Origin: Octopus sinensis
Lineage: Eukaryota
Reading direction: 5' to 3'
NCBI RefSeq assembly: GCF_006345805.1
Contig: NW_021826932.1
Span: 1-11,660 of the forward strand
DNA length: 11,660 nt
The notes under the pieces are model-generated. The model made no database searches, was not told the DNA's origin, and was given only the letters and a program-made list of their open reading frames with translations. Numbering within the stretch: the stretch's first letter is position 1; every line of letters begins with the position of its first letter. Of this stretch, positions 3,129-10,595 are shown in pieces. Made by a program: the position numbers and the translations under genes.

Positions 3129-3236
3129 ATATATACAATTAAGGGCTCCTAATAAAGATGCCGAGTGCTGGGAACACAAAAAGGGGGATGAATTTATCGA
3201 GAGTGAAAATCAAAAACGTTTACCGATAAATTTAAC

Positions 3237-3311
3237 AACTCGTACCGCGGTTTCTGCTTCTTCTAGCAAAACACAGAATATGTTTTCTAAGGCTGGCTTC
3301 ATCAGCGAGTC
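3237..3311 (-). ncRNA. Type I hammerhead ribozyme motif (HHR-B copy 1)
   Basis: Minus strand: gactcg CTGATGA agccagcctt-hairpin-agaagca GAAA ccgcgg TA cgagtt. Stem I gactcg/cgagtt. Palindromic stem III. Predicted cut between 3243 and 3242. Confidence 0.8.
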
Positions 3312-3676
3312 GCCTGAATTTAATCGAGGTCTAGCAGCGATGTGGGGCTATATGTTAAACCCGACTACTAGCAGATCTTAACTTTCAAATCTCTGCGCAC
3401 GCAAAATTTACACGGGCATGCGGGAAGAATTTTACGAATAAATTCATCATGTAGTCGTTGCATATAAACAAGAAGGGTAGTAATATTATTTACTACCAGG
3501 TGCCCAGCACAAAACGAATTAGTCATAAGACAAAAATATTATTCATATAGAAAAATATTATTCATGTGGTTATACAATTAAGGGCTCCTAAATAAAGAGC
3601 CGAGTGCTGGGGAACACAAAAAGGGGATGAATTTATCGAGAGTGAAAATCAAAAACGTTTTACCGATAAATTTAAC

Positions 3677-3751
3677 AACTCGTACCGCGGTTTCTGCTTC
3701 TTTTCTAGCAAAACACAGAATATTTGCTAAGGCTGGCTTCATCAGCGAGTC
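3677..3751 (-). ncRNA. Type I hammerhead ribozyme motif (HHR-B copy 2)
   Basis: Same core: tcatcag 3739-3745 and taccgcggtttc from 3683. 440 nt from copy 1. Confidence 0.8.
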
Positions 3752-4120
3752 GCCTGAATTTAATCGAGGTCTGCAGCGATGTGGGGCTATATGTTAAACC
3801 CGACTACTAGCAGATCTTAACTTTTCAAATCTCTGCGCAGACGCAAAATTTACACGGGCATGCCGGGAAGAATTTTACGAATAAATTCATCATGTAGTAT
3901 GCGAATATAAACAAGAAGGGTAGTAATATTATTTACTACCAGGTGCCCAGCACAAAAGACGAATTAGTCATAAGACAAAAATATTATTCATATAGAAAAA
4001 TATTATTCATGTGGTTATACAATTAAGGGCTCCTAAATAAAGATGCCGAGTGCTGGGAACACAAAAAGGGGATGAATTTATCGAGAGTGAAAATCAAAAA
4101 CGTTTACCGATAAATTTAAC

Positions 4121-4196
4121 AACTCGTACCGCGGTTTCTGCTTCTTTCTAGCAAAACACAGAATATGTTTGCTAAGGCTGGCTTCATCAGCGAGTC
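4121..4196 (-). ncRNA. Type I hammerhead ribozyme motif (HHR-B copy 3)
   Basis: Same core: tcatcag 4184-4190. 444 nt from copy 2. Confidence 0.8.
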
Positions 4197-4291
4197 GCCT
4201 GAATTTAATCGAGGTCTGCAGCGATGTGGGGCTATATGTTAAACCCGACTACTAGCAGATCTTAACTTTTCAAATCTCTGCGCAGACGCAA

Positions 4292-5059: not shown

Positions 5060-5839
5060 CTATATATATGTACATAAACTACATCCGGGAGTGGGAAACC
5101 AGGGTACGAAAGTTCCTGGGATTTGAGGCATGTGGAAGCACTTCTTACCCACTGGTGATCCCAGATCTAACCTGACCCAGGGTAGTAGCACATGATTAGG
5201 GTCCCAGCTAGGATCCTAGTCTAGGAAAAGAAATCTCGATATAAAACCACTGTAGCACTGGATCTGGCGAGCAGACCTTCATTGCATCTTATGTACCCGG
5301 TCGAACGCTGCATCCACTCAAGTCAATACCGACGAGGACTCATATACAGTGAGGTCCCCACCCGGCTGTTCTCGACGTCCTTCATGTTGGAATACCAGCA
5401 TTCTAACAAATTCTAGAATTGTATGATACTAAACACACACACGCTAGCACACACACATAATGATACACACACACTCACACAAACACGATCAGAAGACATT
5501 TTGGTTAGCAAAAATTTGTCGTCAGCAGAAATATTCTAATAAGATTCAGTGTAAATATATTCGAATAATCTTTAACATCATGTTTGTTATGAACTAACCA
5601 ATAAAAACACTAGACGGCATTAAATAAAGCTTTGCAGTTACAGTCTGTACAGATGTTGAACGGACAATGTAGTCCCCTACATGAATATTACAGCAGTTTC
5701 GCAAAAATAAAGAAGTAAACATTAAGAAATAAATAAATAAGAATTCTCCAAAAAATTGGCATTTGTTTTCAGTTTACAAATTTGTGCTGAAGTCAGTAAA
5801 ATATTCTGCTGACTGTTCTGTGTTAATCGTGGATCATCT

Positions 5840-7159: not shown

Positions 7160-7283
7160 ATGAACGCATTCTTTCAGCTTCCATTTACCAAACCTACTCA
7201 GATGACATTGGTTGGTCTGCGACTATAGTAGAAGGCTTCAATTTAGAACAGAAGCTTCTTACCATGCAGCCAGGCCTGCACCT
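7160..7283 (-). mobile_element. Degenerate, internally deleted SINE fragment (octopus-type)
   Basis: ctttcagcttcc..taccaaacctactca..ctatagtagaag..aagcttcttaccatgcagcca is recognised from memory as the reverse strand of a common cephalopod tRNA-SINE. Confidence 0.5.
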
Positions 7284-7385
7284 ACAGAAATCGTACCGAT
7301 GCCGGCAATCGAACCCTGACCGACTGAACGATAGCTAGGAATTATATGTGTGTATATATAACATATACACACATAATTGTTATGT

Positions 7386-7871: not shown

Positions 7872-7878
<7 letters not shown>

Positions 7879-8503
7879 TATTTGAGACAAAACACTATTT
7901 TGCAAAACAAACAAGGAAAGACTTAATCACAGGGAGTGGGTTTTGGTGTATATTGAGGTTTATTAGTTAGTATAGGTATGTGTATAAGTCGTGAGTTTGT
8001 GGTTTACGTGTGTGTATTTTTGTGTGTGAATGTTTAGGTTAGGGGGTTACTTTATAGGTTTGTTATAGAGTTTAGCAAAGGGAGATTTTATCGTTATATG
8101 TTTTTAAGAGTTTTGTTTTATCATGGTTTTTTTTAGGGAATTCGTGGTAATTAGTCTATATTTTCGATATGGATTATATATAGGTTATATATGGATTATA
8201 TACTTATATTTTTTCATTTATACTTTAATTATTTAAAAGTATTATTTTTTATTTTAAAATTTTGATTTTTTAGATTGGAAGTCCACCTGAAGATTGTCGA
8301 TCAGACAAGAAACGATTGTAGTGGCGGTTTTTTTTGACTATTTATTAAATTTTATGTATTGATTAAGTCTTTCCTTGTTTGTTTTGCAAATAGTGGTTTT
8401 GTCTCAAATAATATTTTATAATATTTTACTATAAAATTGGAATTTAATCCTAAATCTGATTTTTTTCCCTGTAATTTGGATATATTCCCTAATATTTATT
8501 ATA

Positions 8504-8505
<2 letters not shown>
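7869..8505 (+). mobile_element. Penelope-like pLTR fragment with minimal HHR and an inverted ~60-bp copy of its own downstream segment at the left end
   Basis: 7869-7929 is the near-perfect reverse complement of 8360-8420. HHR at 8283-8324. (TA)n on both sides. Confidence 0.7.
8283..8324 (+). ncRNA. Minimal type I hammerhead ribozyme motif (HHR-C)
   Basis: ccac CTGAAGA ttgtc gatca gacaa GAAA cgattg TA gtgg. 4-bp stem I, 5-bp stem II. Stem III region acgattgt is self-complementary with G-U pairs. Predicted cut after 8320. Confidence 0.8.
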
Positions 8506-8556
<51 letters not shown>

Positions 8557-8726
8557 TATATACATATAGATATATAACATATATATATATACATATTACA
8601 TATATATATATATATACCATACATATATTATACAAATATATATATACAAATATATTATACATATATTATATACATATGTATATATATATATACATATATA
8701 TACATACATACATGTATATATATATA

Positions 8727-8773
<47 letters not shown>
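8506..8773. repeat. Imperfect (TA)n microsatellite
   Basis: Direct repeat. Confidence 0.93.
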
Positions 8774-8775
<2 letters not shown>

Positions 8776-9429
8776 AATTTAGGAGTGACCCCAACAGGTC
8801 ACTCGTCCACCAGAAAGAGCAGCCATAACTCACACCCACACCAAGTAATAGTAATTCAGAATTAGGTGAAAATTTAAAAACATTTACCCTAATTCATCTT
8901 TTAGACGTTGCAACGTTTCGTGTCATTAATGATTAAATTAGCTTAATTAAATTAAATTAAGCCAATCTACCATAGGTTACACTTCATCAGTAAAAGACCT
9001 GGGAGAGACAAATATACACTAGGCGTCTGTAATCGACCTACGGGATATCTGACTTAAAATTTTCAAGACTGACGTATTCGCGCGCCAAACTTATCAACAG
9101 TAAATATAAACTGCCGATTCAATCTCAGAATATTCAGAAAATTATCAATTAGTCAATAGGGTAGCAAAAAATTCAATAGAAATCTATCGCTACCAGCGGC
9201 CTGATGGAAAAGAGAAAATAATCATCGACTAAATATATAAATATAACATTTAGGAGTGACCCCAACAGGTCACTCGTCCACCAGAAGAGCAGCCATAACT
9301 CACACCGACCGCAGTAATAGTAATTCAGAATTAGGTGAAAATTTAAAAAACATTTACCCTAATTCATCTTTTAGACGTTGCAACACGTTTCTTCGTCTGT
9401 GTCATTAATGATTAAATTAGCTTAATTAA
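8771..9429 (-). repeat. ~470-bp HHR unit array, left (inverted) block, ~1.4 copies
   Basis: aggagtgaccccaacaggtcactc recurs at 8781 and 9252. The block is the reverse complement of the units in 9430-10509. Confidence 0.92.
8897..8997 (-). ncRNA. Type I hammerhead ribozyme motif (HHR-D, minus copy)
   Basis: tcatcag 8984-8990, taaaaga 8991-8997, tctttta 8897-8903, gacgttgcaacgtttc 8904-8919. Confidence 0.78.
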
Positions 9430-9712
9430 CGAGTAACCTGTTGGGGTCACTCCTAAATTGTTATATTTATATATTTAGTCGATGACTATTTTCTCTTTTC
9501 CATCAGGCCGCTGGTAGCGATAGATTTCTATTGAATTTTTTTGCTACCCTATATTGACTAATTGATAATTTTCTGAATAATTCTGAGATTGAATCGGCAG
9601 TTTATATTTACTGTTGATAAGTTTGGCGCGAATACGTCAGTCTTGAAAATTTTAAGTCAGATATCCCGTAGGCATCGATACAGACGCCTAGTGTATATTT
9701 GTCTCTCCCAGG

Positions 9713-9814
9713 TCTTTTACTGATGAAGTGTAACCTATGGTAGATTGGCTTAATTTAATTTAATTAAGCTAATTTAATCATTAATGACACAGAAACGTTG
9801 CAACGTCTAAAAGA
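9713..9814 (+). ncRNA. Type I hammerhead ribozyme motif (HHR-D copy)
   Basis: Stem I tctttta 9713-9719 / taaaaga 9808-9814. CTGATGA 9720-9726. Stem II gtgt/acac enclosing a 12-bp hairpin 9744-9755 / 9762-9773. GAAA 9792-9795. Palindromic cgttgcaacg. GUC triplet, predicted cut after 9807. Confidence 0.85.
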
Positions 9815-10184
9815 TGAATTAGGGTAAATGTTTTTTAAATTTTCACCTAATTTCTGAATTACTATTACTTGGCGGTGTGAGTTATGGCTGCTCTTTCTGG
9901 TGGACGAGTGACCTGTTGGGGTCACTCCTAAATTGTTATATTTATATATTTAGTCGATGACTATTTTCTCTTTTCCATCAGGCCGCTGGTAGCGATAGAT
10001 TTCTATTGAATTTTTTGCTATCCTATATTGACTAATTGATAATTTCTGAATAATTCTGAGATTGAATCGGCAGTTATATTTACTGTTGATAAGTTTGGCG
10101 CGAATACGTCAGTCTTGAAAATTTTAGTCAGATATCCCGTAGGCATCGATACAGACGCCTAGTGTATATTTGTGTCTCTCCCAG

Positions 10185-10284
10185 TCTTTACTGATGAAGT
10201 GTAACCTATGGTAGATTGGCTTAATTTAATTAATTAAGCTAATTTAATCATTAATGACACAGAAACGTTGCAACGTCTAAAAGA
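10185..10284 (+). ncRNA. Type I hammerhead ribozyme motif (HHR-D copy)
   Basis: CTGATGA 10191-10197 and GAAACGTTGCAACGTC 10262-10277. Cut site is 470 nt from the previous copy. Confidence 0.83.
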
Positions 10285-10511
10285 TGAATTAGGGTAAATG
10301 TTTTTAAATTTTCACCTAATTTCTGAATTACTATTACTTGGCGGTGTGAGTTATGGCTGCTCTTTCTGGTGGACGAGTGACCTGTTGGGGTCACTCCTAA
10401 ATTGTTATATTTATATATTTAGTCGATGACTATTTTCTCTTTTCCATCAGGCCGCTGGTAGCGATAGATTTCTATTGAATTTTTTTGCTACCCTATATTG
10501 ACTAATTGAAA

Positions 10512-10595
10512 ATATTATATATATATATATATATATATAAATATATATATATATATGTATATATACATACATACGCATACACACAAATATATATG
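10512..10595. repeat. (TA)n-rich microsatellite
   Basis: Direct repeat. Confidence 0.9.

Follow-up and report, generated by a model that had tools for sequence, protein, structure and literature searches.

The described systems closest to the repeat presented here are the non-LTR retrozymes of animals and the Penelope-like elements (PLEs), for which PMC7229834, PMC7761336, PMC8557442, PMC4209133 and bioRxiv 2026.07.22.740005 are cited below in their accessible parts. A route in which a circular RNA serves as template has been proposed for retrozymes (PMC7229834; PMC7761336), and according to a review no motif pointed to their partner (PMC7761336). Animal retrozymes have lately been presented as non-autonomous derivatives of PLEs (Li, Clavereau & Pollet 2026, bioRxiv 10.64898/2026.07.22.740005), and eight of nine Xenopus retrozymes gave no cutting in vitro (bioRxiv 2026.07.22.740005). 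PLE insertions are marked by a tail at one end and by an inverted copy truncated at its 5' side, and (TA)n targets are used by Neptune, Naiad and Hydra PLEs (PMC8557442). The tail, described as unique to PLEs, is in PAc the stretch between two internal reverse transcription starts at a stem-loop, and both strands of the target are nicked and extended; PAc inserts uncut RNA, cleavage being unnecessary, and mutants of its hammerhead (HHR) still insert (PMC11167929). In these papers both the circular template and the PLE partner are hypotheses, which bear on how animal retrozymes spread and on what the hammerheads, tails and inverted copies of PLEs do.

The window analysed here (11,660 nucleotides) is one whole small contig, NW_021826932.1, of the 2.72-Gb genome of Octopus sinensis, an animal genome rich in (TA)n. 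An earlier note, made from the letters of this DNA, had described positions 8771-10509 as an array of about 470-bp hammerhead units. The ribozyme repeats stand, but they do not form a simple tandem array: two arms on opposite strands are joined head-to-head at 9429, inside (TA)n. The minus-strand arm ends 3' at the proximal (near) fixed site and begins 5' at unit position ~427, and the plus-strand arm begins at unit position ~96 and ends 3' at the distal (far) fixed site; both 3' ends run into (TA)n, within which target-site duplications are unreadable. No open reading frame of 80 aa or more was found inside 8866-10509. The features of the window to which the text refers are the following:

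8492-8773, no strand: (TA)n-rich target, left flank
8771-9429, minus: minus-strand arm, 1.4 units
9429-10509, plus: plus-strand arm, 2.3 units
10407-10509, plus: tail, ~95-100 nt between the proximal and distal end sites, at one insertion end only (boundaries approximate because both ends are AT-rich)
10512-10573, no strand: (TA)n-rich target, right flank
8897-8997, minus: complete type I hammerhead, core 8990-8984, palindrome 8905-8916, predicted cut after 8904, GUC
9367-9429, minus: 5'-truncated hammerhead without the CUGAUGA half, with small insertions, adjoining the head-to-head junction 9429
9713-9814, plus: complete type I hammerhead, core 9720-9726, palindrome 9795-9806, predicted cut after 9807, GUC
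10185-10283, plus: complete type I hammerhead, core 10191-10197, palindrome 10265-10276, predicted cut after 10277, GUC
9808-10277, plus: predicted cut-to-cut monomer, 470 nt, GC 34.5%
8904-9373, minus: second cut-to-cut unit, 470 nt, whose upstream ribozyme is the truncated one
8783-8804, minus: 8-bp hairpin, ~10-20 nt inside the proximal 3' end; other copies at 9254-9275, 9431-9452 (one mismatch), 9906-9927 and 10375-10396
10457-10493, plus: distal hairpin, just inside the distal 3' end; other copies at 9159-9194 (minus), 9513-9549 and 9988-10023
9823-9846, plus: post-cut motif; other copies at 10293-10315, 8866-8888 (minus) and 9335-9358 (minus)
3132-4291, minus: array of a 444-445-bp hammerhead family (GUA, 8-nt palindrome), a single arm here
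7873-8500, plus: end fragment of a Hydra-type PLE, head-to-head, with a short hammerhead (core 8287) and a ~76-nt tail

Elsewhere in the window, a minus-strand frame at 1400-1700 appears to resemble the C-terminal end of a CR1/L2-type LINE ORF2, and the short repeats at 7170-7340 and 1860-2100, which recur in many fetched loci, look similar to tRNA-derived SINE pieces. The G+C-richer stretch of 340 bp at 5077-5412, between microsatellites, is probably a fragment of a mobile element.

A descriptor scan of 8771-10509 returned three complete type I hammerhead motifs, two on the plus and one on the minus strand, and together with the sequence it bears out the three complete and one truncated ribozymes read there before. 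The canonical elements of the type are present: core C3-A9 and G12-A14, the pair A15.1-U16.1, H17 and three helices. The 12-nt palindrome already seen at stem III was found in the three complete motifs, and the stem II insert, which the same reading gave as about 55 nt and branched, measures 54-55 nt (55 nt in the hammerhead at 9713-9814) and folds as two hairpins. The length of 6-7 bp stated for stem I agrees with two copies (7 bp plus a G-U) and fails in the one with its core at 10191, where stem I is one base short and has only 4 contiguous pairs. An extra A lies on either side of the stem II base in 122 of 129 sampled copies; pair 10.1-11.1 is an A.A mismatch in 122/129 copies of subfamily A; it is A-U in subfamily B (both described below). 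The hammerhead with its core at 8990 has no extra A before GAAA, and if this single-A variant (3/129, this copy included) is real, the pair is G-C. The A.A mismatch may slow cutting, and strong activity is also put in doubt by published motifs that proved inactive or dependent on protein. Among these 129 parsed motifs (against 140 exact palindromes, in 26 regions) the core CUGAUGA is present in all and GAAA in 127, with a pattern that allowed limited variation.

The fold constrained to the hammerhead lies within 0.7 kcal/mol of the local minimum. For an RNA of two units, folding as a dimer is more stable than two monomeric folds by 9-11 kcal/mol and lies 1-5 kcal/mol above the unconstrained minimum. 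As a palindromic loop on stem III is needed only for pairing between two ribozymes, cutting as a dimer is predicted, and on these models the hammerheads of the 474-nt unit are predicted to cleave themselves. The excisable monomer of 470 nt proposed at 9808-10277 has the expected cut-to-cut spacing, and its excision is likewise a prediction; 474 nt is the length of the majority of units. Folded as a circle, this monomer gives z = -4.9 against 40 shuffles. RNA reads joining 10277 to 9808, which had been suggested as a mark of circles, cannot show them because the same junction exists in tandem DNA (10277/10278). Rfam, another check that had been proposed, gave no hammerhead family in the window at E up to 1 or up to 10, likely on account of the long stem II insert; since Rfam misses hammerheads with long inserts, families of this kind are probably undercounted.

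The exact 21-nt pattern at the 3' half of the ribozyme has 588 matches in the genome and its reversed control has none, so the motif is not due to chance. The first 100 of the 588 matches lie in 45 loci, which gives an estimate of ~260 loci, and a non-overlapping pattern adds 410 matches, 308 of them belonging to subfamily B, which cuts at GUA. Subfamilies A and B are 88% identical (consensus of B from 2 units of one locus). The abundant retrozyme-like system supposed in the earlier note is supported. At least 268 BLAST matches of the unit were obtained in the genome, with 92-97% identity. The family is young; the fetched loci, 25 of ~260 of subfamily A, are the best-scoring matches and so biased to long, young arrays. 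By every sequence-level criterion (short, low-GC, non-coding, dispersed, self-paired and hammerhead-bearing) the 474-nt unit is a non-LTR retrozyme. The same note had considered that the unit could be the pLTR of an autonomous Penelope element; at no locus examined is it attached to a coding element, an ORF with reverse transcriptase (RT) and GIY-YIG domains included, and two PLE proteins compared by tblastn with 31 family regions gave no match. Pieces of the unit were found as contigs in three sequencing runs, presumed to be of RNA, which are silent on transcription, cleavage or circles.

The two subfamilies allow the RNA structure to be assessed by covariation. With pairs predicted from subfamily A alone, 19 of the changed pairs are kept in subfamily B (5 of them compensatory) and 8 are broken, against 11.4 (0.7 compensatory) and 17.3 for randomly relocated changes (p ~0.001). 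Two compensatory pairs in the hairpin of 8783-8804 are among those kept, as are four changes in the long hairpin of stem II. The stem III palindrome is altered on both sides in subfamily B yet still perfect. This pattern of substitution indicates that the RNA structure of the 474-nt unit is under selection.

The arrangement seen in the window is repeated through the genome. Among the first 100 matches listed for each of the 588-match and subfamily B patterns, 37 of 38 two-strand loci are head-to-head and none is tail-to-tail. The 3' ends fall at two sites of the unit, a proximal one (~130-144 positions after the cut) and a distal one (227-239), ~95 nt apart, and 34 of 35 adjoin (TA)n, with a short TA-like overlap with the target at both. 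Each site lies just beyond a hairpin. The proximal one is that of 8783-8804, previously described as perfect and now found again with further copies; we infer that it is part of the signal for the start of reverse transcription. Of the 18 two-arm loci in which both ends can be seen, 17 combine one proximal with one distal 3' end (p 7e-5). The pairing shows that the two arms of an insertion each use a start of their own, and the paired starts would reflect two primings in one event. The 5' ends are scattered: one of 44 lies within 3 nt of the cut (0.65 expected), no enrichment exactly at the cut was detected in these 44 ends, and within 25 nt they are weakly enriched (9/44, 4.7 expected, p 0.04). 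At the head-to-head junctions the arms overlap by a few bases or have a short inserted sequence between them. Arm length goes from 0.3 to about 12 units (the longest is 11.6), the cut site being crossed intact. The exception to the pairing is the locus L046 (C5 near 70.77 Mb), with two distal-type ends and a non-TA left flank; it has variants common to some units, one of them in the palindrome, and it is possibly older or later rearranged.

The array at 3132-4291 had been taken as unrelated to, and independent of, the one studied. Alignment, post-cut motif, helices and mode of insertion do not support this, and all of them make the 445-bp family a distant relative. Outside the ribozyme the two units are colinear, with a global score above 300/300 shuffles and 360/360 real AT-rich windows; in local alignment 2/500 shuffles reached the score. 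They share the post-cut motif and two covarying helices. The 445-bp family has at least 214 matches in the genome, and elsewhere its arms also lie head-to-head within (TA)n; their ends, near positions 111 and 222, are paired in 14 of 17 two-arm loci, each locus has one haplotype, and arms reach 15.6 units. In the window, its 5' end at 4291 joins unrelated sequence, neither (TA)n nor an inverted arm. The post-cut motif, searched for in the genome, has 171 matches and leads to further retrozyme families (7 matches fetched), which also carry it. Related families have other stem III palindromes of 8-12 nt, the exception being one degenerate copy (L200). Seven sequences of the clan have a long-range helix and the distal hairpin in common, with 12 both-sided changes (0/500 shuffles), although this control is inflated by relatedness and the structure comes from the very alignment that was scored. 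At least three further families of this clan (L195-L201, L110:905-1130) are older; they differ in the stem III palindrome and share the end structure, and many of their copies are less than one unit.

Candidate helpers are found in the same genome. The PLE represented at 7873-8500 has at least 40 loci, with RT and endonuclease frames, and the same paired ends in all of the 8 regions that could be scored out of 12. It is young and autonomous, with a unit of ~5.7 kb and a long 3' UTR (L101-L112, L143); one copy keeps an open frame of 859 codons, and its endonuclease region gives 17,034 first-look candidates in the genome. A second Hydra-type group (L173:949-3828; L177; L180) has an open frame of 960 codons and stem II inserts of 65-75 nt, and in the L177 hammerhead the base of stem II is a U.U. 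Helpers and dependants alike seem to have long hammerhead inserts as a local trait. As read by eye in the translations, the L143 and L173 groups carry Hydra-clade motifs: DKT, an RWK-like motif (as KWK or RWR), a CxCX5C linker, and CxxC and CxH at the endonuclease end. Both groups also have a (TA)n target and a hammerhead; such motifs, target and hammerhead are described for the Hydra clade (PMC8557442). Pfam and PDB searches gave no match naming PLE proteins of the L143 or L173 type, and relatives carry PF26215.

Homology does not single out either group as the partner. The 7873-8500 element and its relatives have no real sequence in common with the unit, nor does the second group, whose 24-nt matches are AT-rich chance; in the regions around endonuclease and pLTR matches of the two groups, only AT-rich matches of ~15-32 nt were obtained. 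Profile searches for a partner returned only a retrozyme-like relic (L110) and one biased match. The motif search excluding the two known families gave more retrozyme families and no coding element in the 7 of 171 matches fetched.

The units of a locus are nearly identical. In 135 units of 25 loci, units of the same arm differ on average by 0.31% in substitutions, units on opposite arms of a locus by 0.35%, and units of different loci by 1.55%. Scored per locus, 86 variants are present in all units, 76 in one unit and 7 in some units, the last kind being found in L033 and L046. Fourteen changes are private to one locus and present in every unit there, 11 of the 14 on both arms, where private means among 25 of ~260 loci, and where assembly polishing could homogenise units. 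This single haplotype is most simply read as the product of one circular monomer that was reverse transcribed by the rolling-circle route. It counts against the circle that a uniform parent array would likewise yield uniform daughters.

We consider it probable that these are non-LTR retrozyme arrays written into (TA)n by a PLE enzyme that copies one circular RNA monomer from two fixed starts. The array would be transcribed, and neighbouring hammerheads, joined by pairing of their 12-nt palindromes, would cut as a dimer, as folding predicts and covariation supports, releasing a monomer of ~474 nt. By analogy with the retrozymes of coral, mussel and axolotl, the monomer may then be ligated into a circle. 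A PLE RT-endonuclease, assumed from the biochemistry of PAc and from the co-resident Hydra-type PLEs, would nick both strands of (TA)n and prime a cDNA at each of the two sites, proximal and distal, which are the fixed paired ends of the loci. Each priming site would lie beside a conserved hairpin, at an AU-rich spot perhaps annealing to the nicked target. Each cDNA would proceed round the template and cross the ribozyme junctions, reaching 0.3 to about 12 units before it ends at a variable position, and the two would then be joined head-to-head; this last part agrees with the anatomy and single haplotype of the loci, to which the circular template would be added. That each array preserves, in this precise sense, the passage of a PLE RT dimer round a single circular ribozyme RNA, begun at the same time from two starts set by structure, is in our judgement evenly poised. 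If true, it would be the first genomic proof that ribozyme circles of animals are templates of retrotransposition, it would map the RNA signal that the PLE enzyme reads, and the PLE tail and inverted copy would be two halves of one priming event.

PLE-driven insertion could also proceed from a long, uncut linear transcript of a uniform array, the ribozyme being slow or gated by protein and the circles a by-product. PAc, which takes unprocessed RNA and whose HHR mutants still insert (PMC11167929), speaks for such a template, as do the A.A mismatch at the stem II base and the 5' ends that are not at the cut. Yet 5' truncation only shortens, and arms reach 11.6 units here and 15.6 in the 445-bp family; a substitution in every unit of both arms requires a bottleneck of one unit, and intermediates are rare (86 variants in all units, 7 in some); and the palindrome of the ribozyme and stem II covary. 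A linear template is judged unlikely, though it is the main rival.

Growth at the DNA level, discussed as a model by Li et al. (bioRxiv 2026.07.22.740005), would have a short piece, derived from or moved by a PLE, inserted and then expanded into a satellite by unequal crossover or slippage, with concerted evolution of the DNA. The few variants common to some units of one array (L033, L046) are what it would leave, but variants of intermediate frequency are few, and inverted arms share private variants (11/14) though unequal crossover acts within an arm. Fixed 3' ends with scattered 5' ends are typical of one RT event, and the many arms that start from less than one unit are unable to seed a whole unit locally. 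We find this history very improbable.

Less credence still is given to a microsatellite-targeting LINE (for example of the R4/Dong type) as mobiliser, the inversion arising by twin priming at AU-rich spots. L1 twin priming also joins 5' ends, and the short TA-like overlap with the target at both ends would suit it; in one cephalopod Dong-R4 is listed as recently active (PMC13282606). Against this, the second site does not vary but is fixed and goes together with the first, the unit itself does not end 3' in poly(A) or a simple repeat, and a type I HHR and a tail are PLE traits, the resident Hydra-type PLEs showing the same anatomy. Finally, an artefact of long-read assembly, which a whole small contig with many single-base indels (~0.9% of unit positions) might suggest, is practically dismissed as the source of the inverted arrangement, given arms of different length that end at two different fixed sites, flanks that differ, a one-sided orientation in 37/38 loci mostly on large scaffolds, and opposite-strand joints in two contigs of an independent run (weak, with 88% likeness and sides of 32-35 nt).

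The earlier note knew of no characterisation of such a system. The class is known (PMC7229834), and this family was not found described: the literature searched holds no report of it, or of a paired-end, single-haplotype footprint in retrozymes, and a Repbase or Dfam entry may exist. The metazoan non-LTR retrozymes of Acropora, Mytilus and axolotl are likewise tandem repeats of non-coding, low-GC units that each bear one type I HHR (PMC7229834; PMC7761336), dispersed and strongly self-pairing, and mobilisation of their circles by PLEs has been proposed (PMC7229834); in HHR_Amex2 of axolotl, too, the base of helix II is mismatched (PMC7229834; PMC7761336). The present unit differs in its 474 nt against ~170-400, in its 55-nt branched stem II insert and in its 12-nt palindromic helix III, and the accessible text on those retrozymes does not describe head-to-head arms, paired fixed ends or a (TA)n target, the word 'inverted' being absent from PMC7229834; cleavage and circles were demonstrated for those retrozymes (PMC7229834), and here cleavage is predicted from the sequence and circles are supposed by analogy.

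Newt satellite 2 and the hammerheads of PLE pLTRs likewise have a palindromic helix III, an extra base after A9 and an expected activity as dimers, with a helix III of 0-2 bp and a loop of 2-4 nt, whereas palindromes of 8-12 nt, possibly forming a 4-bp hairpin, are found here (PMC4209133). The non-autonomous Chlamys elements of green algae (MRC1) resemble the 3' ends of their partners, and most Chlamys elements are without canonical HHRs (PMC8557442). In the accessible text of Li et al. (2026), whose range of unit lengths for animal retrozymes (51-972 bp) includes 474 nt, the derivation from PLEs is argued from pLTR homology and co-occurrence in Xenopus, molluscs do not figure among the sampled classes named, there is neither insertion anatomy nor a haplotype test, and local expansion of the DNA is favoured; in the octopus an insertion footprint was found and pLTR homology was not.

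The endonuclease-bearing (EN+) PLEs (PAc, Hydra clade) are alike in anatomy, with an inverted 5'-truncated copy, a tail at one end, two RT starts at a stem-loop, an AT-rich or (TA)n target and a type I HHR upstream of the tail (PMC11167929; PMC8557442). The unit described here differs from them in having no ORF, a tail of ~95 nt against 30-40, and many short units per arm (PMC11167929; PMC8557442), and its starts overlap TA-like sequence whereas those of PAc are non-homologous to the target (PMC11167929). One genome offers mapped RT starts, a covarying recognition structure common to several families, natural variants of the ribozyme and candidate helper ORFs (859 and 960 codons), with which both the spread of retrozymes and the role of hammerheads, tails and inverted copies in PLEs are directly testable in vitro; the locus-haplotype test is applicable to any retrozyme family. 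Compared with these systems, in which the class was already known and the mechanism earlier hypothesised, what is new is the genomic footprint, namely paired fixed ends together with a single haplotype.
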